A stretch of DNA of 64,000 bases, taken from positions 2,753 to 66,752 of the forward strand of contig JAFGKT010000064.1 in the NCBI GenBank assembly GCA_016928435.1, in the 5' to 3' direction. Positions 9,547-53,575 of this stretch are shown one piece after another. Below the pieces are notes generated by a model. That model was not told the DNA's origin. It ran no database searches and was given only the letters and a program-made list of their open reading frames with translations. Within the stretch, counting starts at the first letter, position 1, and each line of letters begins with the position of its first letter. Source of the DNA: Sedimentisphaerales bacterium (lineage in GTDB: Bacteria; Planctomycetota; Phycisphaerae; Sedimentisphaerales; SM23-30). Made by a program: the position numbers and the translations under genes.

Positions 9547-10176
9547 AACGCTGTTTTTCCTTTCCAACAGTCACATACGTTTACTCTGCTTTACATTACC
9601 CCGGACGGCCTTAAACTGAAGGACATGAGCAATGAAGTAAGGTGTTTTGGATCAGGCATGTTCATGCTGTGGATTTTTTGCTCAAGTCGGTTCAGCCTTC
9701 TGCATTGGCTATCCAGGGAATATCATCGACTGTTTTTAACAGAATCTTGAGAAAAATAAGATTGGTTGAAAGTGGGGTTTCAGGGTTGATATGGTGGTTT
9801 CTGGGGTGGTTATAGGAACTTAATGTCCGGGCCTGAGGGTGTTTGGATAAGGGGGTTGCGACACCTCCTATATTCTCCATGTTGCCTGTATTGCCAGCGA
9901 TTGAGTCCGATAAGTGTTGGATTTGATGGGATTTGGATTTATTGGTTGGTTTTGTGGTTTTTGCGTTATGCTTATCGGTGGTTGGGACGGTGATGTAGGC
10001 GATTGCGTAGTAAGCTGGGGGCGTCTATAATTGATTGTGATATTTCTAAGGATTTTTACACAATTTGAGTGAAACGCGGGCGAAAAGCTCTGAATAGCGG
10101 CCGATTTTTCCGGTTAGATATCGGATTTCTGGGTCTATTTGGATGTTCCGCTGGTGCTATCAAGAGAGAAAGTTTT

Positions 10177-11187
10177 ATGAGCAAGCGTGACTACTATGAG
10201 GTTTTGGGGGTCAGCCGTGACGCCTCGCCGGAGGAGATCAAGAAGAGCTATAGGAAGTTGGCACGGAAGTATCATCCGGATGTAGCAGGGAAAGATCCCA
10301 AGGCGGCGGCTCAATTCAAGGAAGTTAAGGACGCGTATGATGTGTTGAAGGACAAGAAGTCGCGTGCTTCTTATGATCGGTTCGGCCATGCAGCGGAGCA
10401 TATGGGGGGTTGGTCCGGCGGCGGCGGAGAAGGAGGAGGCGGTTTTGGTGGTCAAGGTTTCGATTTTTCGGATATTTTTGGCGGCATGAGGGGTGGTCGC
10501 GGCGGTCGGCGGAGTAATGTCAAGATTAACCTGGGCGATTTGTTTGGCGGCATGGGCGGCGGTGGTGATGAAGATGAGGTTTTCGAGCGTTTGCGCGCGC
10601 AAGGCGGCGGGGCTCGAAGGCGTGGTGAAGATCTAGAACATAAAGTGCGCATTGGTTTTGAAGAAGCGATTCATGGTTCTACGCGTGATGTGGTTTTGAC
10701 CATGCCTCAAGCGGACGGCAGTCGTAAGCAAGAACATTTGAGTGTTAAGATTCCAGCGGGAGTGGATACCGGGAGCAAGATTCGGGTTCGGGGCAAGGGT
10801 CAGCCGGGTATGGGCGGAGACAATGGTGATTTGATCATCAAGGTTGTGGTAGGTGAGCATCCGTATTTTAGGCGGGACGGAGATCGGATAGATTTGGATG
10901 TTCCGGTGACTTTAGCGGAAGCGACGCTGGGCGCTAAGGTGGACGTTCCGACATTGACGGGGATGACGACGGTTACGATACCGCCTGGCAGCAGCGGCGG
11001 AAGCAAATTGCGGTTGAAGGGCAAAGGTGTGAAAGACAACAAGACGGGCAAGACGGGTGATATGTATTTGACGTTGAAGGTGGTATTACCACGAGATTTG
11101 GATGCTGAGTCGCGGAAGTTGGTGAAGCAATTTACGGATTTGAATCCTCAGCCGGACGTGCGTGATGGTTGGAAGCGTTCACAGTAA
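10177..11187 (+). CDS. DnaJ-class co-chaperone lacking the zinc finger (CbpA-like)
   Basis: J domain with HPD (RKYHPDVAG), Gly-rich linker and two C-terminal beta domains, but no CxxCxGxG repeats. ATG at 10177 gives [12 protein letters not shown]. The last four codons and the stop lie inside repeat copy A. Confidence 0.85.
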
Positions 11188-31474: not shown

Positions 31475-32866
31475 TCAAGATACAATTTCTTGGGCGGCGG
31501 GGTCAACTTCGAGTTGGAAGTGTTTCATTTTTTTGTATAGGGTGGTGCGGTTGATGCCGAGCATTTCGGCGGTCATTTGGCGATTCCAATTGTTTTGCTG
31601 GAGCGCGGCTTTGATGATTTTACGTTCAGGTTCTTCGAGGGCTTCGCGCAAGGTCATTGGTTTGAAAATATCGTCGCTTTGCTGTTTAGAGAATTCGACG
31701 ATATGAGGGGTAAGGTCTTCAGGCTGGATGATTGCATGCTTGCTGAGCAAGACGGCGCGTTCGACGACGTTTTCGAGTTCGCGCACATTGCCGGGCCAAT
31801 TGTAGGCTTCCAAGTATTTGATAGTTTCGTGGGCGAATCCGGTTTTTTCTTTTTCGTGATGGGCGCACATTTTTACGAGGAATCTTTCAGCCAATAGCGG
31901 TATATCGGTTCTGCGCTGGGCCAATGAAGGTAATTCAATGTTGACTACATTGATGCGATAAAATAAGTCTTGGCGGAAGTTGCCGGCTTGGACTTCACCG
32001 GCTAGGTCGGCGTTGGTTGCCAGCAGTACACGCACATCCACGGTACGAGTTTCATTGCTTCCTACAGGTTCAAACTGCTTTTCTTGGAGAACTCTTAGGA
32101 GTTTGACTTGGAGACTGGGCGAAGCGGAGTTGATTTCGTCAAGAAAGAGGGTTCCCTCGTTTGCAGCTAGGAATTTACCTTCTTTGTCGGCGACGGCACC
32201 GGTGAATGAGCCTTTGGTATGGCCGAACAATTCGCTTTCTAACAGTGTTTCCGGCAGAGCGCCGCAACTCATTTCGATAAAGGGTTTGTCCATGCGATTG
32301 GAACGATGGTGGATGGACCGGGCGATTAGACTTTTACCGGTTCCGCTTTGGCCGGATATTAACACGGTTGCTTTGCTGTCAGCCACGGCTTCGATGAGGT
32401 CAAAGATCTTGAGCATTTTATAATCTTGGCCGACGATGTTTTCCAAGCCGAAACGGTTTTTGAGTTGGTCGCGCAAGTTGCGATTTTCCTGGAGGAGCAT
32501 TTGCTGATCTAAGGCTCGCTTGACAATCATTCGGATTTCATCATCGACGATGGGCTTGGTAAGATAGTCGTAGGCGCCCATTTTGATGGCTTCGACGGCG
32601 GACTCGATGGTGCCGTAGCCGGTGATAACGATAGTGACAATTTCGGGATAGCGTTTGCGAATAACGCGCAGCAGTTCAAAACCATCCACCTCGGGCATGT
32701 TGACGTCGGTTATGACCAGGTTGAACTTTTGTTTCTCCAGTTGTTTGAGTGCCGCGGTGAATCCATCGGCCCCGACGGCGTTAAATCCCTCGAGCTTGAG
32801 AAACTCACAGAGAGAATCTTGAATGATTTGGTCGTCGTCAACAACAAGGATATTCTTATTAGCCAT
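31475..32866 (-). CDS. Sigma-54-dependent response regulator (NtrC family enhancer-binding protein)
   Basis: Receiver domain (ITDVNMPEVDG), AAA+ Walker A GQSGTGKS, sigma-54 contact loop GSFTGA, C-terminal Fis-type HTH MLGINRTTLYKKMK. Confidence 0.93.
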   Translation of the reverse strand: MANKNILVVDDDQIIQDSLCEFLKLEGFNAVGADGFTAALKQLEKQKFNLVITDVNMPEVDGFELLRVIRKRYPEIVTIVITGYGTIESAVEAIKMGAYDYLTKPIVDDEIRMIVKRALDQQMLLQENRNLRDQLKNRFGLENIVGQDYKMLKIFDLIEAVADSKATVLISGQSGTGKSLIARSIHHRSNRMDKPFIEMSCGALPETLLESELFGHTKGSFTGAVADKEGKFLAANEGTLFLDEINSASPSLQVKLLRVLQEKQFEPVGSNETRTVDVRVLLATNADLAGEVQAGNFRQDLFYRINVVNIELPSLAQRRTDIPLLAERFLVKMCAHHEKEKTGFAHETIKYLEAYNWPGNVRELENVVERAVLLSKHAIIQPEDLTPHIVEFSKQQSDDIFKPMTLREALEEPERKIIKAALQQNNWNRQMTAEMLGINRTTLYKKMKHFQLEVDPAAQEIVS

Positions 32867-32921
32867 ATTCGTTTTGATCCTGTTTGCGTTACTTTTTACT
32901 TAAGATGTTTTCGGAAGGCAA

Positions 32922-34082
32922 TTATTCGGTCCGGAAGCTGGTGCATAGCAACGGTATGGTAACGGTAAACTTCGCGCCGCCTTGTGGATGATTTTGGGCG
33001 GTTATTTGTCCATTGTATTTTTCGATGATATCTTTGCAGATCGCCAGTCCCAGGCCGGTTCCTTTGCCGGGCGCTTTGGTGGTAAAGAAGGGTTCAAAGA
33101 GCTTTTCCCGGACTTCATCGTTGAGTCCCATTCCGGTATCGCAGAAATCGATCACTGCATCATTGCTGGTACATAGGGTAGTTATGGTGAGTTGGCGTTG
33201 TTGAGTGGGCGGGCAATGCTCGACCATGGCGTCGATGGCATTCTTTATTAGGTTGCAGAAGACTTGGAACATATTTCCGGAGCGGATATTGGGCATAGCT
33301 GAGGCATAGTTGCGAATGATTTCGACGTTGTTATTGACGGCTTGGGCTTCGAGGGTTTTGACGGCTTCTTCGACGATCTTGTTTATGTCGGCTTCGGCGG
33401 CGGCGGAATAGGTGCTGCGGGAGAATTCCAGCAGTTCGCCGATGATGTGTACCATTCTTTGCAGGCCGACGCGTGATTGCTTAAGGTAGCGGTCAATTTG
33501 CTCGAGTTGCTGTTGGTCGGCGATTCTAATGGCCAGATTGATGTATCGCAAGATGCCGTCCAAAGGGTTGTTGAGTTCGTGGGCGACTCGGGCGGCGAGT
33601 TTGCCTACGCTGGCTAATCGCTCAGCGTCAGCCAAGTCAGTTTGCATGGTGACGCCGGCGGTAATATCCTGAAAAGCCAAAGCTCCCCGCGCAACGTCGT
33701 TTTTGAGCTGCTGTTCCAGCGGAGTGCAGATCATACGCAATATTCTGGTTCGTTTGGAATTGCTGTAGCGGATTTCATCGTAGCTTTTAGACTTGTCTTG
33801 GTCGAGGGTGTCTTCCAATAGGGATTGCCAATCGGTTGCTTCGTCGCTTGTGGAACATGATTGTAATATTTCGAGGATATTCTCACATGGGCCGAACATT
33901 TCTTGGGCGGCTGGGTTGGTGGTGATGGTGTCGAAGTTTCGGTCAAAGGTGATGACCGCCAGGGGCAAATGCGCGATGATTTGCTCAGCGATAGTGGGGT
34001 TGGCGGGAAGCCCAGCGGTGGATTGGTGTTGTGGTTTCTCAGGCATATGTGAGTATTGTGTCCTGCAAAGTGTTGATTGCAT
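32922..34082 (-). CDS. Sensor histidine kinase (PAS-HisKA-HATPase, apparently cytoplasmic)
   Basis: H-box [10 protein letters not shown]-box [10 protein letters not shown]-boxes DTGMGL and GTGLGLAI. No obvious TM segments. Alternative ATG at 34046. Confidence 0.9.
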
Positions 34083-36452: not shown

Positions 36453-37865
36453 ATGTTAACTCTAAACAATCCCAGTATGTACAGCTTGCTGAGCAATCTT
36501 TCGAAAACCAGTTCGGCTTTGTCGATTTCCAATATTCGTTTGAGCAGCGGCTTGCGTGTTAATAGTGCCGCGGATGATCCATCGGGTATAATCGCGGCGG
36601 CACGCTACGCATCACATTTAGAGACAATTGACGCCACAATAAGTAACGCTAATCGCATTAGCAGTATAGCCTCCACGGCTGACGGTGCCCTATCGGAAAT
36701 AGGTTCTTTGTTGGCAAGCATTGAAGCGAATGTTATCGCGGCTTCGGGTGACTCGGCAACTTCGGCGGAAATCGCGGCGTACCAGGAGAACATTGATTTA
36801 GCTGTCGATGCGATTGATCGCTTGGTGGACACGACAAGTTTTGACGGACAGCGTTTGCTGGATGGTACTTTGGCTTATAACACCACAGGGGTGGACACAG
36901 ATGATATCGGCAGTTTGAGTATTCGCTCAGCGAATACCAGCAGCGGTTCGATTTCAGTGGAAGTCAGCGCGACAGGCGGCAGTCAGGCTTCGATTACGTT
37001 TGACGCTGTGACTATCGCAGTTGATACGACGATGACGATAACCGGTCCGGACGGCAGCGCGACGGTTGAGTTTACGGCAGGCGATACTAAATCCGACATT
37101 CAAACGGCGATAAACGCGGTGACTGCTGAGACAGGGGTGACGGTGGAATATGCCGGGGGGGCGGCTGATTTGTATCTTAAAACTGAAGACTACGGCTCGG
37201 ATATGACCATAACGCTGAATGTTACCGAAGGAGCGTTTGCGACGGTGGGCGGTGTTACCACAGCCAGCGGTGATGACGGAACAACCACCGTTAACGGTAC
37301 AGCGGTGACACGAGGCAGCGACCATCAGTATTACTATAATAGTTCCGGTATGAGTATGCAGTTTTCTTTGACGGATTCGTTCTTTCAAAGCGGCGGCAAT
37401 ACGACCTTCAGTGTTAGCGGCGATGGTTCGGGTTGGGCTTTGGATACGACAGCTTCAGGGCAACTTAACTTTGGTATTGATTCGTTGGATCCGACCTCAT
37501 TGGGCACCAGCTCATTGGGATATCTCAGTTCATTAAAGAGCGGCGGCGCCAACGCCATGAGTACGGGTAACTTCAGTGCGGCTGAGGATATCGCGGAATA
37601 CGGAATTAGTAGAGTATCGACCGAGCGTGCGCGTATCGGAGCTTTACAGAGTTATACCATTGGCAGTACGATCAATTCACTTACCGATACCAAAGAAGCT
37701 ACAACTACCGCGCTGAGTAATATTATGGACCTGGACTATGCGACGGAAACCGCCAACAATAATCGTCTGCAAATGATGATGGAAGTGGGAGCGTCGATTT
37801 TGGCGTCAATGAGCCAGTTGCAGGGTAATTCGGTATTGACGTTATTGGGTGGTATCTCCCGGTAG
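36453..37865 (+). CDS. fliC: Flagellin
   Basis: Conserved N-terminal D0/D1 (LSSGLRVNSAADDPSGIIAA) and C-terminal (ETANNNRLQMMMEVGASILASMSQLQGNSVLTLL) regions with a variable T/S/G-rich centre. Confidence 0.92.
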   Translation: MLTLNNPSMYSLLSNLSKTSSALSISNIRLSSGLRVNSAADDPSGIIAAARYASHLETIDATISNANRISSIASTADGALSEIGSLLASIEANVIAASGDSATSAEIAAYQENIDLAVDAIDRLVDTTSFDGQRLLDGTLAYNTTGVDTDDIGSLSIRSANTSSGSISVEVSATGGSQASITFDAVTIAVDTTMTITGPDGSATVEFTAGDTKSDIQTAINAVTAETGVTVEYAGGAADLYLKTEDYGSDMTITLNVTEGAFATVGGVTTASGDDGTTTVNGTAVTRGSDHQYYYNSSGMSMQFSLTDSFFQSGGNTTFSVSGDGSGWALDTTASGQLNFGIDSLDPTSLGTSSLGYLSSLKSGGANAMSTGNFSAAEDIAEYGISRVSTERARIGALQSYTIGSTINSLTDTKEATTTALSNIMDLDYATETANNNRLQMMMEVGASILASMSQLQGNSVLTLLGGISR

Positions 37866-38237
37866 TTGCGTTTGTGGGGTAGGTAGACTCCGATTTTGGG
37901 TGTCCCTATTTTATTGGTGGATTGTTACGGAGCAATACAAACAGGGACGGATAGGGATTGGTGATTAGTTCCACCAGGGTGGAATCCCCGCGCTTACGCT
38001 TGGGGCTCTGATTGGCGTGAGGCGGTGGGGGCAGGGGGTGTGTATGGTGGGTGAGGGGATATTTTAGTATGAGAATTTTTGAGTTAAAAACTTGCTGTTG
38101 GGCAATACAAGTGTATATAGTAAATATTGTGCGGCATCGTATGCGGCATAAACCATACTGTTAGGGTATGATTGGTGTTAATTCTTGGGCTGTCGGGCTG
38201 TTGGAGTTATGGCGGCATATTCGAGATGAGGTTGGCT

Positions 38238-40085
38238 ATGGCGACGTATGAAGTGGTGTTTGAGCCGGATGGGGTGAAAGCCAGGGTGGCGGCGGGGGTT
38301 ACGATTATGGATGCCGCCAATAGCGTGGGGATCATTTTGGACGCGGTTTGCGGCGGGGCGGGGACATGCAATAAATGTTTGGTTGAAGTGGATGGTATGG
38401 GCCGCAAGGTGCGCGCGTGCCAAACCAAGGTTGATTGTGACATGGTGGTCACAATTCCTGAAGGTTCGCGTTTCTTCGAGCAGAAGATATTGCAGGAAGG
38501 CATAGCCGCGGACAGCAAGCTCGATCCGCTTATCTGCAAACATCATGTGATTTTGAGCCCGCCGGAATTAGCTGACTTGCGCAGCGATGCGCAACGTTTG
38601 ATCGACGCGGTTGACGTGGACGCCAAGGATCGACACCAATGTTGTCGGTGCCACGATCATGCGGGTACGGCTTCGGGCAGTACAACATTGGCGACAGGAT
38701 TATTGAAGTCTCTGCCGGCGTTATTTCGAGCCCATAATTTCGCGATCACAGCGACTTGCTGCAGCGGTCGAATTTTCGCCTTGGAACCGGGCGATACTAC
38801 GTCAACGCTTTTTGGCGCGGCAGTGGATGTGGGTACTACTACGGTGGTGCTGCAGTTAGCGGATTTGAACAGCGGCGCGGTAGTGGCACGGGCCTCGGCA
38901 GCGAATCCTCAGGTGGCGTTTGGTGACGATGTTATAAGTCGGATCGATTACACACGCGAAAACGCTGATGGTTTGGGGGTGTTGCAGAGGCGGATAATTG
39001 ATTGTGTGAATAAGTTAGTGGCCGAGGTATGCGAAAAGTCTTTGGTGAAACCTTGGCAAATATATGAAATGACGATCGCTGGGAACGCGACGATGCAGCA
39101 TTTGTTCTTGGGTATTCCCGTTGAACAGATTGCTCAGGCGCCTTATGTGGGTGTGTTTTCCAGCGGAGTTAATGTGCCGGCTGATACTTTGGGTTTGAAC
39201 ATTCATCCGCAAGGCAATGTTTATGTTATGCCCAGTGTCGCGGCGCATGTGGGCGGCGATACGGTGGCGGTTGCTTTGGCGACGGCGATGAAGCACAGTG
39301 ATAAAATAAACTTAGCGGTTGATATCGGCACTAATGGTGAGTTGGTTTTGGGCAATAAGGATAGGCTCTTGGCGTGCAGTACCGCGGCGGGTCCGGCGTT
39401 TGAAGGCGCGCGGATTCAGCATGGTATGCGCGGTGCAAGCGGTGCCATCGAACGGGTTCATATAAATGACGATGTTGTCATTGGGGTGATCGGCGGGGGT
39501 AAGCCTAGTGGTATCTGCGGCAGTGGTTTGATCGACGCGATTGCGGAGTTGATTAAATCTCAGGTTATTGATGTTACGGGCCGACTTTTGGAGCCGAATG
39601 ATTTGCCTAGTTCGGTACCGGCGGCGGTGAAAGATCGCGTGATTGTTGGCGAAGACGGCAAGACGGCGTTTGTGTTAGCGCGGGCGGCGGAGACGCAGCA
39701 AGGCCATGATATTATCTTGACGCAAAGAGATATCCGGGAAGCGCAGTTAGGCAAAGCCGCGATTCAAGCGGGGATCGTTACGCTGATGAACGAGTTTGGT
39801 GTGCAATTAGAAGATATTGACAGGTTGTATTTAGCGGGTGCGTTTGGTAATTATATTCGGGCGGAGAGTGCGTGTGCGATTGGATTGTTGCCTGAAAAGA
39901 TGCCTCTAGATCGGATCCAGTTTGTTGGTAATGCCGCGGGTGCCGGCGCCAAGGAAGTTTTGCTCAACCGTCAAGCTCGTATGCACGCGGAGGAATTGGG
40001 GGCGCAGATTGAGTACGTGGAATTGGCCGGCCGAGCGGACTTTCAGAATGTTTTTAGCGAATGCATGATGTTTGGTGAGTTTTGA
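38238..40085 (+). CDS. 2Fe-2S ferredoxin domain + ASKHA ATPase protein (DUF4445 / RACo-like corrinoid activation family)
   Basis: N-terminal plant-type ferredoxin CGGAGTCNKCLV ... ACQ, then an ASKHA fold with AVDVGTTTVV and VDIGTNGELVLG. ATG at 38238 follows GAGG. Confidence 0.8.
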   Translation: MATYEVVFEPDGVKARVAAGVTIMDAANSVGIILDAVCGGAGTCNKCLVEVDGMGRKVRACQTKVDCDMVVTIPEGSRFFEQKILQEGIAADSKLDPLICKHHVILSPPELADLRSDAQRLIDAVDVDAKDRHQCCRCHDHAGTASGSTTLATGLLKSLPALFRAHNFAITATCCSGRIFALEPGDTTSTLFGAAVDVGTTTVVLQLADLNSGAVVARASAANPQVAFGDDVISRIDYTRENADGLGVLQRRIIDCVNKLVAEVCEKSLVKPWQIYEMTIAGNATMQHLFLGIPVEQIAQAPYVGVFSSGVNVPADTLGLNIHPQGNVYVMPSVAAHVGGDTVAVALATAMKHSDKINLAVDIGTNGELVLGNKDRLLACSTAAGPAFEGARIQHGMRGASGAIERVHINDDVVIGVIGGGKPSGICGSGLIDAIAELIKSQVIDVTGRLLEPNDLPSSVPAAVKDRVIVGEDGKTAFVLARAAETQQGHDIILTQRDIREAQLGKAAIQAGIVTLMNEFGVQLEDIDRLYLAGAFGNYIRAESACAIGLLPEKMPLDRIQFVGNAAGAGAKEVLLNRQARMHAEELGAQIEYVELAGRADFQNVFSECMMFGEF

Positions 40086-40680: not shown

Positions 40681-43266
40681 TTACTTATCGAAGGTGAAGC
40701 TGTGTGCTTGGGCGTCGATTTTTACGGTGTCGCCGTCGGTGTATTGGCCGGCCAGGATTTTTTGGGCGAGGGGGTTTTCCAATTTTTGCTGAATGGTGCG
40801 TTTTAATGGCCGGGCGCCATAGGAGACGTCGTAGCCTTCTTCGAGGAGCATGTCTTTAGCGGCATCGGATATTTGCAGTTGCAGGTGTTTTTGTGCCATT
40901 CGTTTTTGCAGATAGCCCAGTTGTATGTCCACGATTTTGCGCAGTTGTTCTTGGCCGAGCGGATGGAAGACGATGGTTTCGTCCACACGGTTAAGGAACT
41001 CCGGGCGGAAGAATTGTTTGAGTACATCTTTGACATGGGCTTCGATTTCCCAGTCGGCTCCTTTTTCTTCGCGGAGTTTTTGGATTTGGGCGCCGGCGAT
41101 ATTGCTGGTCATGATGATAAGGGTGTTTTTGAAGTCGACGGTTCGGCCGTGGCCGTCGGTCAATCGGCCGTCGTCCAGCACTTGCAGCAAAACATTAAAT
41201 ACATCGCGATGGGCTTTTTCAATTTCGTCGAGTAAGATTACGCTATATGGTTTGCGTCTGATAGCTTCGGTGAGTCGGCCGCCTTCTTCGTAGCCGATGT
41301 ATCCGGGAGGCGCGCCAATCAACCGGGCGACGCTGTGTGGTTCCATGAACTCACTCATGTCGATACGCACCATGGCGTTTTCGTCGTTAAATAAGAATTC
41401 CGCCAGGGCACGGCTGAGTTCGGTTTTGCCTACGCCGGTCGGGCCTAAGAAGATGAAGCTGCCCATCGGTCGATTAGGATCGCCCAGTCCGGCCCGAGCG
41501 CGACGTATAGCATTGCTTACGGCTTGGACGGCTTCTTCTTGGCCGACGACTCGCTTGGATATCTCCGTTTCCATGTGCAGCAGTTTTTCCATTTCACCGG
41601 TGAGTAGTTTGCTAACCGGTATGCCGGTCCATTTAGCGACGACATGGGCGATTTCATCTGGGGTGACTTCTTCTTTGACCAGGCTGTTGCCGTTATGTTG
41701 CTGAGCGGCTTTTTCTTGAGCTTGTTCAAGATTTTTTTGTAACTCCGCGATTGTGCCATAACGCAACCTCGCTGCGGTTTCCAAGTCGCCGCGGCGCTGG
41801 GCTTCTTCTAGTTCGCGTTGAGCTGTGTCAATTTGTTCTTGGATGTTCTTAGCTTCTTTGAGCAGACCGGTTTCGGCTTCCCAACGGGCCGTCAAGGCGT
41901 GGTCCTGTTCTTCCAGGTCAGCTAACTGTTCTTGCAGTTTTGCCAACCTTTGTTTGGATGCTTTGTCAGTTTCTTTTTTGAGTGCTTCGCGTTCGATTTG
42001 CAGTTGCATTATTCGACGGCGCAGCTCATCGAGTTCACTGGGCAGCGAATCGTTTTCGATGCGCAAACGCGAGGCGGCTTCGTCGATGAGGTCGATAGCT
42101 TTGTCAGGCATGAATCGGTCAGCGATATAGCGATTGCTCAGGGTTGCCGCGGCGACCAAGGCGCTGTCGGTGATACGCACACCGTGATGAATGTCGTAGC
42201 GTTGTTTTAATCCGCGTAATATCGCGATGGTGTCTTCGACGGAAGGTTCATCAATAAGAATCGGTTGGAAGCGTCGTTCCAGGGCGGCGTCTTTTTCGAT
42301 GTATTTACGATATTCGTCCAGAGTGGTGGCGCCGATACATCGCAGTTGTCCGCGCGCCAGGGCGGGCTTGAGCAGGTTGCCCGCATCGACGGCGCCTTCG
42401 GCTTTGCCGGTACCGACTACCAAGTGCAGTTCGTCAACAAATAGAATGATCTGGCCATCGGAATCGGTGACTTCTTTAAGCACAGCTTTGAGACGGTCTT
42501 CGAATTCGCCGCGAAACTTTGCGCCCGCAATCAAAGCGCCCATATCCAAACCGATAACCCGTTTGTCTTTTAAGCCCGCGGGCACATCGCCGTTAACAAT
42601 ACGTTGGGCGAGACCTTCGACGATAGCGGTTTTACCTACACCTGGTTCACCGATCAGGACAGGGTTGTTTTTGGTACGCCGGCCTAGCACCTGCATGCAA
42701 CGGCGGATTTCCTCATCGCGACCGATGACCGGGTCGAGTTTGCCTTTGCGGGCTAGTTCGATCAGATCGATGCCGTACTTTTCCAGGGTTTGATATTTGT
42801 TTTCGGGATTGGCATCAGTCACTTTTTGTCCGCCGCGAATTTCCTGCAAAGCCGCGAGTACCTCATTGCGATTGACAGCGTTGACTTCAAGCAGTTCCTT
42901 GGCAGGACTGGGTACTTCCAGCAACGCCAACAGAATATGCTCGGTGCTGAGATATTCATCTTTGAGGGTGTCCGCTTCTTTGTTGGCTTGGATCATTACC
43001 TTCTGCAGGGCTGCGTCGCCGGTCAGTTGGCCTGCCCCGCTGACTTGGGGTAAGCGATCCAATTCGTCTTTGGTCATACTGATAATTTGGTCAACATTAC
43101 AGCCGGTTTTGTTCAGTATGGCGGGGACTATACCGCCTTGGGCGTCTTGGAAAAGTCCAGCCAAGACGTGAAGCGGGGTGAGATTGGCGTGGCCGGAGTT
43201 CGTGGCGATTTCCTGGGCGGTGGCCAAGGCTTGCTGAGCTTTGATTGTCATTTTTTCAAATCGCAT
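40681..43266 (-). CDS. clpB: ATP-dependent chaperone ClpB
   Basis: Clp N-domain, NBD1 GEPGVGKT, long middle coiled coil, NBD2 GPTGVGKT, 861 aa. Confidence 0.97.
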
Positions 43267-43391
43267 AATTTATTCCTTTTATATGCTGCTGTCCGTTAGT
43301 GGTTTAGCTGTCGCCGGTGGTGTTATGCAGTTTGGGCCCTTTCGCGTTGGCTGTAACAGGCAATATATTCCACCATACTCAAAGTCTTGTT

Positions 43392-43407
43392 CGCAAATAC
43401 CGTGCCA
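43392..43407 (-). promoter_or_regulatory. Sigma-54 (-24/-12) promoter candidate for clpB
   Basis: The minus strand reads TGGCACGGTATTTGCG, matching TGGCACG-N4-TTGC with exact GG/GC spacing. It lies about 125 nt upstream of the clpB ATG. Confidence 0.65.
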
Positions 43408-43494
43408 TAAAGCGGATGTTTTGTTTAAGTATTTGTGGTAAAAGGCTTTATATTGCAATGGTTTTTGGAGAAGATTTGACGGAGTTTAAAAGTC

Positions 43495-43597
43495 TGCCAT
43501 TGTGGCATGAAATAGGTCCAGTTTGCGGCTGTGGCAGTTGGACTTTATACAGCCTGTCAGGTTGGCACGGACATCTGCCAACATTGCCACAGTGGCA
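43495..43597. promoter_or_regulatory. Cluster of TGCCA/TGGCA palindromes (candidate enhancer-binding-protein sites)
   Basis: TGCCA-TTG-TGGCA (43495-43507), TTGGCA-N8-TGCCAA (43562-43581), TGCCA-CAG-TGGCA (43585-43597). All lie midway between the two sigma-54 promoter candidates. Confidence 0.45.
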
Positions 43598-43697
43598 GGC
43601 TATCCCTGAGGGCGGATGGGTGAGACGATAATTGTCAATAGCGTAAAATGTTTTACAGCAATAGTTTACGATCTAGTACGAAGGTTTGTAGTTTTTC

Positions 43698-43713
43698 TGG
43701 CATTGTCTTTGCT
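43698..43713 (+). promoter_or_regulatory. Sigma-54 (-24/-12) promoter candidate for groEL-groES-groEL
   Basis: TGGCATTGTCTTTGCT matches TGGCAY-N5-TTGCW with exact spacing. It lies about 115 nt upstream of the groEL ATG. Confidence 0.6.
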
Positions 43714-43804
43714 TTGTGTGACGACATAGAGTCGGAGTCTAGCCTGACTCCGTGGCAAAGAATAAATCGGTAGTGACAATTTGAGTTACTTTTAAATCCG
43801 CTAG

Positions 43805-45526
<1,722 letters not shown>

Positions 45527-45627
45527 TAGTTCTTGCCTTAGCGGCCCCTGAGTAAATACCAACTGTAATATAGTTAAGTAGAAGTTTTTACATAAAACCA
45601 GATTTTTAATCATAGGAGTTTAGAAGT

Positions 45628-45918
45628 ATGAAGGTTAAGCCATTAGATGATAGAGTGTTGGTAAAGCAGTGTGATGCCGAGACTAAAACGGCCGGCGGTA
45701 TTGTTCTGCCTGATTCTGCCCAAGAGAAGCCTCAACGCGGCATCGTGCAACAATGCGGCCCGGGCAAAATGCTCGACAGCGGCGAACGTGGCGGCATGAG
45801 TGTCAAAAGTGGCGACGAAGTCTTCTACGGCAAATATGCCGGTACGGAAGTCCAAATCGATCAAGAGACCTACGTTATTCTGCGGGAAAGCGACATTTTG
45901 GCGATCCTGACCAAGTAA
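45628..45918 (+). CDS. groS: Co-chaperonin GroES
   Basis: MKVKPLDDRVLVK ... GDEVFYGKYAGTEV, 96 aa. Confidence 0.96.
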   Translation: MKVKPLDDRVLVKQCDAETKTAGGIVLPDSAQEKPQRGIVQQCGPGKMLDSGERGGMSVKSGDEVFYGKYAGTEVQIDQETYVILRESDILAILTK

Positions 45919-46036
45919 CGGTTATTATCGCAATTAAAGCAAAAACTCTTAAGCCGGTTTGTCGGCGGGGTACAAGATGTGCTGACGTGAAAACGTGACG
46001 CGGATTTGACCCTCAGAGATAGAATGGAGTTATATA

Positions 46037-47647
46037 ATGGCCAAGCAAATGATGTTTGATGATGCCGCCCGAAAAGAAATTCAGGACGGCCTGATGCGGC
46101 TGGCTTCAGCGGTGAAGGTTACGATGGGGCCGACGGGTCGTAACGTGATCCTGCAGAAAAGTTTCGGTTCGCCCCGTGTCACCAAAGATGGTGTTAGTGT
46201 TTCCAAAGAAATCGAACTGCCCGAGCCTTTTGCCAACATGGGCGCGAAAATGGTGAATCAAGTAGCCAGCAAGACCAGTGATGTGGCCGGTGACGGCACA
46301 ACCACGGCTACGGTTCTTGCCGAAGCGATCTACACCGAAGGGCTCAAATATGTTGCCGCGGGTGTAAATCCCATGTCGCTGCAGCGCGGTATTAACAAAG
46401 CTGTCGCGGTGGCGGTAGAGTCAATCGCCAAGCAGAGCAAAAAGGTTAAAGGCAGCGACGATATCGCCAAGGTCGGTGCTATAAGCGCCAATAACGATCC
46501 GCAGATCGGCAAGCTTTTGGCTGAAGCCATGGACAAAGTCGGCAAGCAGGGCGTTATCGAAGTCGAAGAAGGTAAAGGTATCGAGACTGAACTGGAAGTT
46601 GTCGAAGGTATGCAGTTCGACAAAGGTTTTCTGTCGCCTTACTTTATAACCAAGGCCAGCAGTATGGAAGCCGTTCTGGAAGATTGCTATATTCTCATTC
46701 ACGAGAAGAAGATCAGCAATCTGCGGGAGTTGGTTCCGTTGCTGGAAAAAATCGCCGGCTCCGGCAAGCCGTTGTTGATGATTGCTGAGGATGTTGAAGG
46801 CGAAGCCCTGGCGGCTTTGGTTATCAACAAGCTGCGCGGCGTGCTGCACGTTTGTGCGGTTAAAGCTCCCGGCTTTGGTGATCGTCGCAAAGCCATGCTG
46901 GGTGATATCGCGGCGTTAACCGGCGGGCAAATGATCAGCGAAGATCTGGGCTTGAAACTGGAAAACATCGAAATGTCCCAATTGGGCCAAGCTCGTCGTG
47001 TTGTTATCACCAAAGAGAACACCACGATTGTCGATGGTGCCGGTGCCAAGAAAGATATCAAAGCCCGCATCAATCAAATCGAAAGTCAAATTGAAAAAAC
47101 CACCAGCGATTATGATCGTGAGAAACTACAAGAGCGTCTCGCCAAGTTAACCGGCGGCGTTGCTGTTGTAAGAGCCGGTGCTCCAACCGAAACCGCGATG
47201 AAGGAACGCAAGGATCTGTTGGAAGACGCTCTGCATGCAACCCGGGCCGCGACCGAAGAAGGTGTAGTACCTGGCGGCGGCGTGGCGTTGCTGCGGGCGA
47301 TTAAGACGGTTCAGCAGGCGCAAAAGGATATCGTCAACGACGAGAAATTCGGTTTCGAGATCATCGCCAAAGTACTAAAGGCCCCGGCGCGTCAGATTGT
47401 CGAGAATAGTGGTGCCGACGCGGCCATGGTGATTTCAGAGCTGATGGAGAAAACCGGCTCGGCTGGGTATAATGCCGCCAAGGGTGAGTTTGTTGACATG
47501 CTAGAAGCTGGTATTATCGACCCTGCCAAGGTTACCCGCGCTGCTTTGCAGAACGCCGGCAGCGTCGCTGGGCTTATGTTAACAACCAAGGTTCTGATTA
47601 CCGATCTCAAAGATGATGAAGAACCTGTGCAGGGCGCGATTAGCTAA
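46037..47647 (+). CDS. groL: Chaperonin GroEL (copy 2, acidic tail, no GGM repeats)
   Basis: [34 protein letters not shown]. Ends [14 protein letters not shown]. Confidence 0.97.
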
Positions 47648-47942
47648 CATCTAAGTGGAATGTCCGGATGATATTTTCCGGGTTCTGTTTAGATACTGAT
47701 CGTTGCTTGTTGATGAAGTAATTTGACAGCCGTGGTCACGATGTTGGCTCTGTATGATTGCTCGCAAAATGCTATATGATCTAGAATAGCGTTAGCGGGA
47801 CTAAATCAAACAGGCAAGACATCGTGGCCGACGGTGGTTTTTGTTTCGAGAACAATTCTCGATATGCAAACTGAGGCTATGCGACGGCGCAATTTGCCGT
47901 TTTTGGGTCATTGGCCCATAGCTGTTGTTTTGGATGGGCTTT

Positions 47943-49097
47943 ATGGCAGCAACCAAACGCGACTACTATGAAGTGTTGGGCGTTAAACGCGATTCCAGCC
48001 CGGAAGACATCAAACGCGCCTATCGGCGTTTGGCGATGAAATATCATCCGGATCGCAACCCAGACCAGCCCGAATGTGAGCAGAAGTTCAAAGAATGCGC
48101 TGAAGCCTACGAAGTACTCAGCGACTCGCAAAAACGACAGCAGTATGATCGTTTCGGCCATGAAGGACTGCGCGGCAGCGGAATGCACGACTTCTCGCAT
48201 ATGCGCTCCGATGATATCTTCAGCATGTTCGATGATATCCTGGGTGGTGTTTTTGGCGGTGGTCGTCGGCGCGGTGGTCGATCGGGCAACCGTGCGGCTC
48301 GCGGTTATGATATCGAAACCCAAGTCACCATCAGCATGCAAGAAGTACTCAGCGGCGTAGAAAAGCTGCTGGAGTTCAAGCGACGTGATCTTTGCCCGCA
48401 ATGCAAAGGCAGCGGCGCCGAGCCTGGTCATGATCGTGAACCTTGTGCCCAGTGTGGCGGTCAAGGCCAAGTAGCCCAATCAGGTATGGGCGGACTGTTT
48501 CGTATGGTTACCACTTGTCCGCGTTGTAAAGGCGCAGGCAGTGTAGTAACTCATCCGTGCAAAGCATGTCATGGTCAAGGAATGGTCGAGAAAGAGCGTA
48601 AGCTGACTCTCAAGATTCCCGCCGGCATTAGTGACGGACAAGCAGTTCGGGTTACCGGTGAAGGCGAACCCGGCCAGCACGGCGGTCCATCGGGTGATTT
48701 GTATTGCTATGTTAGAGTGAAGGGGCACGATTTTTTGCATCGCGAAGGCGATGACTTGGTAGTGCGTTTGCCGATAAGTTTCAGCCAAGCGGCATTAGGC
48801 GCTACCGTTGAAGTACCTTCTTTGTCCGGTCGGCGCGAAATAGAAATACATCCGGGTACGCAGCATGGCGCGGTGATCGAAGTCAAAGGCCAAGGTTTAC
48901 CCAATATTCGTAGCGGCCGGCGCGGTTCGCTGCTGGTGCAGGTTTTGATCGAGATTCCTAAGAAGCTCAACAAAGAACAGAAGAAGCTGTTGCGGCAATT
49001 TGCCGAGACCGAAGATAAAACTGTATTGCCGGAAAGCAAAGGGTTTTTTGATAAACTCAAAGATTACTTTGCCGGCGAAAGTCACAATTCCAACTAA
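47943..49097 (+). CDS. dnaJ: Molecular chaperone DnaJ (type I, with zinc finger)
   Basis: J domain HPD (KYHPDRNP), G-rich linker, four CxxCxGxG repeats ([32 protein letters not shown]). Confidence 0.96.
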
Positions 49098-49123
49098 ATG
49101 CTTTACGCTGTAAATGAGTTATT

Positions 49124-49744
49124 ATGAGTAGCAAAAAGGATAAAAAAGCGGGTAAGTCAATTCCGATTGAATCTGCGGAAGAATCTATTGATTCAGCTCA
49201 GCCCACAGAGGGTCAGCCGGAATCGCAATCTCCGGAAGTTGTCGAAGAACCAGCGGCTGAGCCTTCGTTAGAACAACAGTATGAGCAGTTGAAAGCGAGA
49301 TATCAACGCCTGGGTGCCGACTACGCCAACTACCAGAAACGCAGTCAGCGCCAGATTGAACAGGCGTCTCAGTTCGCCCAGGAAAGTGTTGTTCGGGCCA
49401 TTTTGCCGGTTCTGGATAATTTTGATCATACTTTGGTTCAGGGCAGCGAGGATATGAATCCCGCGGCAATTCTGCAAGGGGTCCAAATTGTTTACGATCA
49501 TCTGACCAAGACTCTCAGCGGTTTTGGTATGGAGCGGGTGGCAGTCAAAGTGGGTACTGATTTTGACCCCACCATTCACGAAGCGGTTCTACATGAAGAA
49601 AGCGCTGAATTGGAGCCTAACCAAGTTGTCCGCGAGTTAGCTGCCGGTTACACAATGAACGAACGTACGATTCGTCCAGCCAAAGTTTCCGTTGCCAAGG
49701 CGCCCAGTGAACCGCAGACCGAAGAAGAAACGACGGAAGAATAA
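49124..49744 (+). CDS. grpE: Nucleotide exchange factor GrpE
   Basis: Coiled-coil region followed by the GrpE beta domain (VVRELAAGYTMNERTIRPAKVSV). Follows dnaJ. Confidence 0.9.
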   Translation: MSSKKDKKAGKSIPIESAEESIDSAQPTEGQPESQSPEVVEEPAAEPSLEQQYEQLKARYQRLGADYANYQKRSQRQIEQASQFAQESVVRAILPVLDNFDHTLVQGSEDMNPAAILQGVQIVYDHLTKTLSGFGMERVAVKVGTDFDPTIHEAVLHEESAELEPNQVVRELAAGYTMNERTIRPAKVSVAKAPSEPQTEEETTEE

Positions 49745-49968
49745 TTACTAACTGCCCATATAGGTTTTGTCAACTTTCGCAGTTTTGAACGTCAAAATAT
49801 GCACTCAGAAGTGCCTTTCTATCGCATACGTATTTTTGTTCGTCTTCGAGCATGCTTTCGAAAGCGACAAAAAACAATCAGATCCCTTCAAAAGGTACTT
49901 CCGCTATGAAACCCGACAATGTAAATCAAGAAAAAGTGCGAAGTCGCACGTTTTTATGTGAGTAAAAA

Positions 49969-51691: not shown

Positions 51692-53575
51692 GTGAAAAAA
51701 CAAGATAGTACCGGGCAATTGGGTTTTGCCTTTGAATCTGAGCAGGAGTCTGTCGCTACCATCGTGAAACCGACCAAGAAGAAGAAAAAGACCACAGCGA
51801 AAAAAACCGCAACCGATAAAGGCAAAACCGATAAACTTGTCTTGCCCAGCAAAACCAAGCCGGCAAAAAAAGAAAAAGAAGATCCGATTATCAAGAAGCG
51901 CAAGCAGAAAGATATAGTTCGGAAAAAAATAGAGCAAATTTCGGAAGACAAGATTGAAGCCCAAGCTCAATTAATGGCTTCCAAGCAGCGTGATATAAGC
52001 GTCAGTGAGTTTTTTGCCAAGAATCGTCATCTCTTAGGTTTTGACAATCCCCGTAAAGCCCTGTTGACCGCGGTCAAAGAAGCGGTGGACAATTCTCTGG
52101 ATGCTTGCGAAGAAGCTCAGATTCTCCCGGTCATTGAAGTGGGTATTACCCAGACTGCTGACGACCGTTTCAGAATATGGATCCAGGATAACGGTCCGGG
52201 TATCGTCAAACAGCAGATTCCTAATATTTTCGGCCGATTGCTTTACGGCAGTAAGTTCCATACCTTGCGTATGGCGCGGGGTCAACAAGGCATAGGCATA
52301 TCCGCGGCCGGCATGTACGGTTTGCTCACCACCGGTAAGAGTGTAAAAATCACCAGCCGGACCGGCCCGCGCAGCCAAGCCCACTATTACGAACTGCAAA
52401 TCAATACCCAAAAGAATCGTCCGGAGATCATCGAAGACCGTGTGACTGACTGGGAGGCTTCCAGCGGCACACGGGTAGAAATTGAAATGGAGGCTCGCTA
52501 CCAGCGCGGTCGACAAAGCGTCGATGAATACCTTGCCCAAACCGCTATCGCCAATCCACATGCGGAATTTCGTTACGTTCAACCCGATGGCCAGGTGTTG
52601 ATCTACGAACGCTCGGTACCGGATGTTGTCGAAGTACCTAAAGCCGTCAAGCCTCATCCTTATGGCGTGGAACTGGGCGTACTAATGAAGATGGCCAAAG
52701 ACACCCCCGAGAAAACCATGACATCGTTTCTTAGCGAAGAGTTTTCGCGGGTTAGTTCCAAGGTTTCCCAAGAGATTCTCGACAAAGCCAAAATCTCCGC
52801 GCGTAAAAACCCATCGACCATAAACCATGCCGAGGCGGAAAAGCTCTATCGGGCTATCAACGACACTAAAATAATGGCGCCTAGTACCCGTTGTGTGGTT
52901 CCCATAGGTGAAGACGCTTTGCTCAAGGGGCTGCAGCAGGTGGTTGAAGCGAGCTTTTACACGGTTTGTACTCGTCCGCCGGCGGTTTATCGCGGTAACC
53001 CTTTCCAGATCGAAGCCGGTTTAGCCTACGGGGGCAAACAACAAAATGATATCGAAGAAGAAGACTTCGAGCTTGGCAAAAACGGCAATGGCAACGGCAA
53101 TGGTAATGGCAATCAAGAACAAATGCGCGTGTTGCGTTTCGCTAATCGCGTGCCGTTGCTTTATCAGCAGTCAGCCTGTGGTATTTTCAAAGCTGTCACC
53201 CAGATGAATTGGCGTTTGTATGGTCTGTCGCAGAGCCGCGGTTCGCTACCGGCAGGTCCCGTTACCGTTATGGTGCATATAGCGTCCGTATGGGTGCCGT
53301 TTACCTCCGAAAGCAAAGAAGCTGTCGCTCATTATCAGGAAATTCTCAAAGAAGTGAAACTCGCTCTGGGTGAATGCGGTCGGCGGTTGGGTACGTACCT
53401 GCGCGGCCAAAAACGCCGGCGCGACGAATCGCTCAAACGCAGCTATATCGAAAAATATCTCCCAGCTATCGGCGAGGCGCTGCGTGATATCCTGTCGCTC
53501 AAAGACCAACAAGTTGACACCATGTTGGAGCATTTGGAGTATGTCTTGGAACACAGCCGCAGCACCAAGATATGA
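51692..53575 (+). CDS. top6B: DNA topoisomerase VI subunit B (GHKL ATPase) with Lys-rich N-terminal extension
   Basis: Bergerat fold: N-box KEAVDNSLDA, G1 QDNGPGI, G2 GQQGIGISAAG. Transducer motif WVPFTSESKEAVA. GTG start at 51692 follows AGGAAGG; an alternative ATG at 51974 would remove the K-rich region. Confidence 0.85.
   Translation: MKKQDSTGQLGFAFESEQESVATIVKPTKKKKKTTAKKTATDKGKTDKLVLPSKTKPAKKEKEDPIIKKRKQKDIVRKKIEQISEDKIEAQAQLMASKQRDISVSEFFAKNRHLLGFDNPRKALLTAVKEAVDNSLDACEEAQILPVIEVGITQTADDRFRIWIQDNGPGIVKQQIPNIFGRLLYGSKFHTLRMARGQQGIGISAAGMYGLLTTGKSVKITSRTGPRSQAHYYELQINTQKNRPEIIEDRVTDWEASSGTRVEIEMEARYQRGRQSVDEYLAQTAIANPHAEFRYVQPDGQVLIYERSVPDVVEVPKAVKPHPYGVELGVLMKMAKDTPEKTMTSFLSEEFSRVSSKVSQEILDKAKISARKNPSTINHAEAEKLYRAINDTKIMAPSTRCVVPIGEDALLKGLQQVVEASFYTVCTRPPAVYRGNPFQIEAGLAYGGKQQNDIEEEDFELGKNGNGNGNGNGNQEQMRVLRFANRVPLLYQQSACGIFKAVTQMNWRLYGLSQSRGSLPAGPVTVMVHIASVWVPFTSESKEAVAHYQEILKEVKLALGECGRRLGTYLRGQKRRRDESLKRSYIEKYLPAIGEALRDILSLKDQQVDTMLEHLEYVLEHSRSTKI

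Follow-up and report, generated by a model that had tools for sequence, protein, structure and literature searches.

Putative divergent sigma-54 promoters and enhancer sites between clpB and groEL1 in a Sedimentisphaerales bacterium

Sigma-54 promoters with -24/-12 elements and bacterial enhancer-binding proteins (bEBPs) are known to serve chaperone and stress genes in several bacteria, including the NifA-dependent groESL3 of Bradyrhizobium japonicum and ibpB and pspA of Escherichia coli. These cases are accessory paralogues or promoters, and the core regulon is controlled by sigma-32 or by the repressor HrcA acting at the controlling inverted repeat of chaperone expression (CIRCE). The present analysis concerns a 64,000-nucleotide stretch (hereafter the window) of a Sedimentisphaerales bacterium of the class Phycisphaerae, phylum Planctomycetota (assembly GCA_016928435.1, contig JAFGKT010000064.1, positions 2,753 to 66,752), in which the spacer between clpB and groEL1 combines putative -24/-12 promoters with putative bEBP sites in front of principal chaperone genes. 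HrcA/CIRCE and sigma-32 have the same targets (groESL, dnaK-dnaJ-grpE and clpB), whereas the control proposed here is positive and exerted from a distance, and not through a repressor operator or a sigma-70-family factor. Another described system is the set of NtrC enhancer sites at glnAp2, TGCACCA-N3-TGGTGCA. In common with the sites in the present spacer these are multiple dyads, placed about 100-140 bp upstream of a -24/-12 promoter, spaced by helical turns and built on a CCA-N3-TGG core. They differ in the outer half-site, which is CTG here and TGCA at glnAp2, and in the genes served, which are chaperones here and nitrogen assimilation genes there.

In mechanism, the HsfB/HsfA phosphorelay of Myxococcus xanthus comes closest; in it an NtrC-like bEBP directly activates the heat-shock gene lonD (Ueki and Inouye 2002, as cited in PMC9109919). 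The reported targets of HsfA are lonD, secondary-metabolite genes and pilY1 genes, not the core dnaK, groESL and clpB genes, and the two systems are likened by description and not by orthology. Within the Planctomycetota, a microarray study of Rhodopirellula baltica has reported the induction of chaperones with unchanged expression of rpoH, rpoE and rpoN and has suggested 'a significantly different response cascade' (PMC2754498). More recently, a survey based on position-specific scoring matrices (PLoS One 2025, PMC12316311) has predicted sigma-54 promoters, enriched at GroEL, GroES, GrpE, DnaJ, DnaK and IbpA genes, in Planctomycetota. The chaperone-gene prediction was also made for Bacteroidota and included Clp-type ATPases, and the Phycisphaerae were described as showing 'a smaller presence'. 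That survey is an enrichment statistic over COG categories; it names no enhancer motif, activator, locus architecture or replacement of sigma-32 or HrcA. The phylum, the gene set and the promoter class are alike in the survey and in the present locus. What differs is the presence here of C-TG(C/T)CA-N3-TGGCA-G sites, the divergent clpB/groEL1 layout and a Phycisphaerae signal that is strong and not small. An earlier sequence-only reading of the window had called the arrangement poorly described; this holds for the enhancer and the activator, which the survey leaves unnamed, but not for chaperone sigma-54 promoters as such, which it had already predicted. A locus of this kind had been predicted, and the present one is a well-supported example; what appears to be new in detail is its enhancer motif, the layout of divergent promoters in one shared spacer and the strong signal in Phycisphaerae.

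Promoters and palindromes in the clpB/groEL1 spacer

The two genes are divergent, and the spacer between them covers positions 43267-43828 (562 bp). In the reading favoured here, to which we assign a probability of about 0.8, the spacer would hold two outward-facing sigma-54 promoters and three bEBP sites that switch on clpB and the groEL1 cluster. The elements, from the clpB side to the groEL1 side, are as follows.

43407..43392, minus strand: PclpB, TGGCACGGTATTTGCG, putative sigma-54 -24/-12 promoter, 11/12 against the consensus
43494..43508, no strand: putative enhancer site A, CTGCCATTGTGGCAT, with the core TGCCATTGTGGCA (TGCCA-TTG-TGGCA) at 43495-43507
43554..43568, no strand: putative enhancer site B, CTGTCAGGTTGGCAC, an imperfect palindrome of the form TGTCA-N3-TGGCA
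43584..43598, no strand: putative enhancer site C, TTGCCACAGTGGCAG, with the core TGCCACAGTGGCA (TGCCA-CAG-TGGCA) at 43585-43597
43698-43713, plus strand: PgroEL1, TGGCATTGTCTTTGCT, putative sigma-54 -24/-12 promoter, 10/12 against the consensus

In both promoters GG and GC lie exactly 10 nt apart within TGGCAC-N5-TTGCW. The motif ends 125 nt before the ATG of clpB and 115 nt before that of groEL1, and the clpB transcript is predicted to start about 12 nt downstream of the GC of PclpB. The sequence-only reading had placed both promoters at these coordinates, facing outward 105-125 nt before the start codons and fitting TGGCAC-N5-TTGC with GG-N10-GC spacing; the positions obtained here agree with it. 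The shorter pattern TGGCA-N6-TTGC has three matches in the 64-kb window against 1.03 expected, two of which are the outward-facing pair in the spacer. At a score of at least 10 against the 12-position consensus, PclpB and PgroEL1 are the sole intergenic matches in the window, which leaves the 64 kb without any further candidate for a sigma-54 promoter. The third TGGCA-N6-TTGC match (44838-44852, minus strand) runs antisense within groEL1 and has a one-mismatch palindrome, TGCCTTTGTGGCA (45171-45183), 319 nt upstream of it. As a promoter this element was rejected; it is not conserved in the homologous codons of six relatives and is therefore probably due to chance.

The palindrome pattern TG[CT]CA-N3-TGGCA occurs just three times in the window, each time inside 43495-43597. 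From site A it is 87 nt to the -24 element of clpB and 190 nt to that of groEL1; sites B and C are 130 nt and 100 nt, respectively, from the groEL1 -24 element. The dyads span 87-190 nt from the two -24 elements (66-203 nt in relatives), a geometry that answers to that of bEBP sites, which are often multiple and lie about 70-200 bp upstream; the earlier reading had put the distances at about 100-200 bp. Sites B and C are separated by a constant 30-31 bp, or about three helical turns. The three palindromes originally listed are all present at their coordinates, yet one of them, TTGGCA-N8-TGCCAA (43562-43581), was set aside because it is not conserved in an alignment of four divergent spacers described below; its left arm belongs to site B, which is the actual unit. 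A matrix of 29 sites from loci fetched by homology gave the consensus C-TG(C/t)CA-N3-TGGCA-G, in which the core was preset by the collection pattern and only the flanks and the spacer are unbiased.

In the mechanism proposed, sigma-54 RNA polymerase would wait in a closed complex at each promoter, and an oligomeric AAA+ activator bound to the palindromes would contact the holoenzyme through DNA looping. Hydrolysis of ATP by the activator would then open the promoter and turn on clpB and groEL1-groES-groEL2-dnaJ-grpE. The palindromes would be activator sites and not operators, and the activator would be an NtrC-family protein under phosphorelay control. The inducing signal is probably heat or proteotoxic stress: in Rhodopirellula baltica, heat induces both clpB and the homologous operon, RB8966-RB8974 (PMC2754498). 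The sites had been described as shared by both promoters. Such sharing is possible in so compact a spacer, yet it is not required, because non-divergent relatives have a proximal palindrome of their own for each promoter; in one relative (L001) the clpB-proximal site lies about 250 bp away from the groEL cluster of sites. Site A probably serves mainly clpB, and sites B and C mainly groEL1.

The genes that the two promoters would control were assigned by their Pfam domains.

43266..40681, minus strand: clpB, encoding an 861-aa disaggregase (Clp_N, AAA, AAA_lid_9, AAA_2, ClpB_D2-small), candidate target of PclpB
43829-45526, plus strand: groEL1, first gene of the chaperone cluster 43829..49744, candidate target of PgroEL1
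45628-45918, plus strand: groES
46037-47647, plus strand: groEL2
47925-49097, plus strand: dnaJ
49124-49744, plus strand: grpE

The ClpB of the window is 100% identical to the ClpB of a Sedimentisphaerales metagenome-assembled genome (MAG) in NCBI, and the closest relatives of GroEL1 are from Phycisphaerae and Anaerohalosphaeraceae MAGs; a look-up for the exact GroEL1 protein found no entry. The five genes from groEL1 to grpE are presumed to form a single operon. Weak terminator-like hairpins are found in the gap between groEL2 and dnaJ, and a bidirectional hairpin is located past grpE at 49936-49949. The gene order of the cluster is kept in the loci L002-L007, L010, L104, L106, L109 and L125.

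Conservation and spread of the composite motif

Relatives were collected by a GroEL1 scan with one genome per species, which gave 80 loci from many phyla. The layout groEL1-groES-groEL2(-dnaJ-grpE) was present in 11 of them, namely nine Phycisphaerae/Planctomycetota loci (L001-L007, L015 and L058), an anammox planctomycete (L010) and an Omnitrophota MAG (L019). A GG-N10-GC element stands 100-190 nt before the groEL1 ATG in 10 of these 11 operons; TGG(C/T)A-N6-TTGC is exact in eight, and L003 and L010 deviate at the first base. At most groEL1 loci CTGCCA-N3-TGGCAG or CTGTCA-N3-TGGCAC is located 90-200 nt upstream of the promoter, with TGTCA-N3-TGGCAC being the sole upstream site in L006 and L007. 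L004, L006, L007, L015 and L058 have equivalents of site C, at 94-118 nt upstream of the -24 element.

A comparable picture was obtained for clpB in seven further loci (L001 and L201-L206; ClpB identity 69-79%), all of which have a -24/-12 element upstream of the gene. In L201-L206 these elements score at least 10/12, have GG-N10-GC spacing and lie 54-150 nt before the clpB ATG, while L001 has all 16 letters of TGGCACGGTATTTGCG unchanged as its clpB promoter, preceded at 88 nt by a palindrome (87 nt in the window). The palindrome TG(C/T)CA-N3-TGGCA is found 66-89 nt upstream of the clpB -24 element in six of the seven (L001, L201, L202, L203, L205 and L206). The divergent clpB/groEL1 arrangement with both promoters and three sites also occurs in L202 (Phycisphaerae SM23_30) and L203. 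Alignment of the four divergent spacers (the window, L001, L202 and L203; alignment A2) revealed extended conserved blocks only at PclpB, sites A, B and C, and PgroEL1. The remainder is essentially unalignable, and agreement beyond the promoters and palindromes is restricted to scattered single positions. Within the blocks, site A reads TGCCA-N3-TGGCA, site C reads TTGyCA-N3-TGGCAG, and site B reads CTGTCAGGTTGGCA, with 14 consecutive bases invariant across the four genomes. Across the clpB/groEL loci of Phycisphaerae, too, the spacer around the conserved promoters and palindromes is not conserved. The central claim of the sequence-only reading, divergent sigma-54 promoters with upstream activator palindromes, is supported by this conservation.

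The same reading had suggested testing conservation at orthologous loci and looking upstream of dnaK. The former gave promoters at 10/11 groEL1 and 7/7 clpB loci and palindromes at most of them. For the latter, three dnaK loci (L207-L209) were fetched through protein homology alone, independently of the motif. Each combines a perfect TGGCACG-N4-TTGCA, 61-85 nt before the dnaK ATG, with CTGCCAAAATGGCAC 92-101 nt upstream of the dnaK -24 element.

The specificity of the composite motif was examined by scanning for a promoter plus palindrome within 1.5 kb upstream in the 80 GroEL loci, among which Verrucomicrobiota, Acidobacteriota, Desulfobacterota, Nitrospirota, Bacteroidota and others served as negative controls. 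The composite was found in seven Planctomycetota loci, and one further match, a weak one (GGGCAGG...), was found in a Syntrophorhabdales locus. Judged by this distribution of sequences, the composite motif is specific to Planctomycetota, bar the one weak match. Metagenome contigs were scanned for TGCCA-N3-TGGCA followed after 85-115 nt by TGGCAY-N5-TTGC. At least 120 stretches matched and 80 loci were taken, for 73 of which the first downstream open reading frame (ORF) could be called and was scanned against Pfam. Among the matches listed, to which all counts in this paragraph refer, the first downstream ORF encoded HSP70 in 17 cases, a single-domain Response_reg protein in nine, HSP20 in five, Cpn10 in three and Cpn60 in two. 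By tblastn, groES-groEL follows six of the receiver ORFs (L103, L108, L119, L122, L126 and L143), and groEL-groES-groEL-dnaJ-grpE operons stand behind several short mis-called ORFs. Of the 74 loci that could be assessed, 39 (53%) have a chaperone gene on the strand of the promoter and no more than 1.5 kb downstream of it: 18 dnaK, 15 groES/EL and six hsp20 loci. The GroELs have Planctomycetota as their closest references, and all named close homologues of the DnaK group are from Planctomycetota, Sedimentisphaerales or Phycisphaerales. In this lineage the composite precedes dnaK, groES-groEL and hsp20 genes and so marks a chaperone regulon. A bolder proposal, to which we give somewhat less than even odds, is that the entire core proteostasis regulon of Phycisphaerae is transcribed mainly or solely by sigma-54 with one dedicated NtrC-family activator acting at C-TG(C/T)CA-N3-TGGCA-G. 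Such a regulon would comprise dnaK, groES/EL, clpB, hsp20, dnaJ and grpE and would probably extend more widely in Planctomycetota.

Two side observations concern individual loci of the GroEL1 scan. In the Anaerohalosphaeraceae chromosome OY775912.1 (L002), short tandem repeats with GAGTCCT and GAGGCTT units occupy about -150 to -70 of groEL1, between the sigma-54 element and the ribosome-binding site. In L028 a receiver-headed composite arrangement is likewise seen, at about -1053 from groEL.

Candidate activators and alternative explanations

A potential regulator pair is encoded within the window, about 10 kb from the chaperone promoters, in an apparent operon.

34082..32922, minus strand: histidine kinase, 386 aa, with a PAS-like N-terminus
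32866..31475, minus strand: NtrC-type response-regulator bEBP, 463 aa, with REC, Sigma54_activat, AAA-lid and Fis-type helix-turn-helix domains and a GSFTGA loop

The GSFTGA loop of this bEBP implies that the genome uses sigma-54. For the phylum, Leary (1998, cited in PMC3343278) is reported there to have shown that rpoN of Planctomyces limnophilus complements a Salmonella rpoN mutant. Among the metagenome matches listed, NtrC-type bEBP genes adjoin the composite in eight loci (L082, L093, L105, L123, L136, L141, L156 and L157). The identities of these bEBPs with one another and with the window bEBP are 33-47% (L093, with its mis-called ORF, excluded), which is the background of the family. 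In L082 and L141 the order is histidine kinase, bEBP, motif and a receiver gene, whose family stands first in groES-groEL operons of other loci. The occurrence of receiver genes both in groES-groEL operons and after kinase-bEBP pairs suggests a phosphorelay feedback loop in the chaperone regulon, and the two pairs together with the REC-groES-groEL genes suggest a phosphorelay comparable to HsfB/HsfA. No orthologue of the single-domain REC proteins encoded in REC-groES-groEL operons was found in the window. By its position, the kinase-bEBP pair of the window (34082..31475) is a weak candidate for the cognate regulator. It was rejected as a proven one, since only the catalytic cores align with the kinases of L082 and L141, at 28% identity.

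Other modes of control were sought in the same sequences. The sequence-only reading had noted no CIRCE upstream of the chaperone genes, and indeed TTAGCACTC-N9-GAGTGCTAA has no match in the whole 64-kb window, even with up to three mismatches. The best match in the spacer to the sigma-32 pattern CTTGAAA-N13-17-CCCCATNT has four mismatches, which equals the mode of 200 shuffles. Two weak sigma-70 matches were found in the spacer against 1.2 expected, outside the conserved blocks of A2. Neither 5' leader gave an Rfam match at E<=1 to an RNA thermometer or any known RNA element, and the leader folds were not more stable than those of shuffled sequences (z-scores of -0.13 and +0.21). As a separate observation, a near-perfect CIRCE, TTGGCACTC-N9-GAGTGCTAA, abuts the sigma-54-like GTGGCATACCGCTTGCA at about -180 to -134 of groEL in the Omnitrophota MAG L019, where the pair precedes a groEL-groES-groEL operon. 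This may represent hybrid control by a repressor and sigma-54, or the sigma-54-like match may be incidental.

Several observations weigh against activation of clpB and the groEL1 cluster by sigma-54 and a bEBP as set out above. The groEL1 locus of L005 has only the degenerate TGGCGCATGGTTTGTA, a GG-N10-GT variant with TTGT as its -12 element. L204, from a 4.24-Mb genome, has a good sigma-54 element at clpB but another dyad, CTGTCATGTCAAGATGACAG, at -160 to -140 of the gene, which may be a diverged or alternative activator site. Among the metagenome matches listed, 35 of the 74 assessable loci have no chaperone gene; these are taken to be chance matches and possibly other sigma-54 promoters. 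On the side of the machinery, rpoN is not among the genes of the 64-kb window, the sensor domain of the window kinase is unrelated to those of the kinases beside motif-adjacent bEBPs, and the alignment of bEBP helix-turn-helix domains is too generic to discriminate. Given these last two points and bEBP identities at background, no cognate activator is assigned. The sigma-70 consensus of planctomycetes may differ from the one that was scanned. Finally, groEL and dnaK are normally essential, so that, if the only promoter were activator-gated, either the activator would have to be active at a basal level or a housekeeping promoter must have escaped detection.

In one alternative, which we regard as unlikely, the sigma-54 promoters exist but play an auxiliary part: unrecognised housekeeping or extracytoplasmic function (ECF)-type promoters would provide basal and heat-shock expression, and sigma-54 and its bEBP would add some other signal (envelope, nutrient or developmental), as with NifA and groESL3 in Bradyrhizobium or ibpB in E. 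coli. For essential chaperone genes it is rare that an activator-gated promoter is the only one, and the 5' leaders, at 105-125 nt, are long. The expression of rpoN was not heat-regulated in Rhodopirellula baltica, although this is uninformative on the activity of an activator (PMC2754498). The two weak sigma-70-like matches could be cited in support as well, but they are at chance level and outside the A2 blocks, and all of the classical heat-shock genes (dnaK, groESL, clpB, hsp20, dnaJ and grpE) are covered by the composite, which argues against an auxiliary role.

It is also conceivable, but improbable, that the palindromes are operators of a dimeric repressor or other factor, an analogue of HrcA, HspR or CtsR, with the activator binding elsewhere or acting from solution. 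Where inverted repeats precede chaperone genes, they are classically the targets of repressors, and the motif contains TGGCA, the core of the -24 element, which makes some interaction with sigma-54 conceivable. The sites, however, lie 66-200 nt upstream of the -24 element without overlapping it. The lone overlap, of one palindrome with the promoter in L006, is accompanied by a second site 108 nt upstream. At this standard enhancer position they would be ineffective for steric repression, and no repressor is needed because sigma-54 promoters are silent without an activator. The NtrC-type bEBP genes that abut the composite in the eight metagenome loci likewise favour activator sites, and the central CCA-N3-TGG, common to NtrC sites, fits a reader of the NtrC family. 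Chance matches in an AT-rich spacer would account for short and degenerate patterns, and three TGGCA-N6-TTGC per 64 kb is only modestly above the expectation of 1.03. Position and orientation, on the other hand, are kept in more than 20 independent loci and three gene families with otherwise unalignable spacers, and the metagenome matches listed show the 53% association with chaperones; conservation and the metagenome scan effectively refute this explanation, which retains next to no probability.

Neighbouring genes and implications

Several other genes were noted in the remainder of the window. A second DnaJ-family gene (10069-11187, plus strand) encodes a J domain and a C-terminal domain without a zinc finger, as in CbpA; neither a sigma-54 element nor a palindrome was found upstream of it, and it appears to be outside the regulon. 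The gene at 51692-53575 (plus strand) encodes a 627-aa B-like subunit of topoisomerase VI, a protein uncommon in bacteria, with Topo-VIb_trans (E = 1.7e-54) and HATPase_c domains; no obvious gene for an A (Spo11-like) subunit was noticed adjoining it. The window also encodes a Type ISP restriction-modification enzyme (15-2909; Type_ISP_C, N6_Mtase), a flagellin (36453-37865) and a RACo-like corrinoid activase with a 2Fe-2S domain (38172-40085), the last of which is consistent with an anaerobic lifestyle. None of these three genes has a sigma-54-like element.

For the biology of the Planctomycetota, the locus and its motif turn the question of how heat is sensed in the phylum into a testable model of sigma-54 plus one activator. 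The motif can be used to capture the activator by DNA-affinity or one-hybrid methods and to reconstruct the regulon in any planctomycete genome, and the promoters are a possible source of tightly off, inducible control for the sparse planctomycete genetic toolbox. The model implies that an enhancer-dependent sigma factor can carry the expression of essential housekeeping chaperones. If sole control by sigma-54 is true, rpoN and the activator would be essential in the lineage, and the arrangement would constitute a third general scheme of the bacterial heat-shock response, beside sigma-32 and the HrcA, HspR and CtsR repressors.

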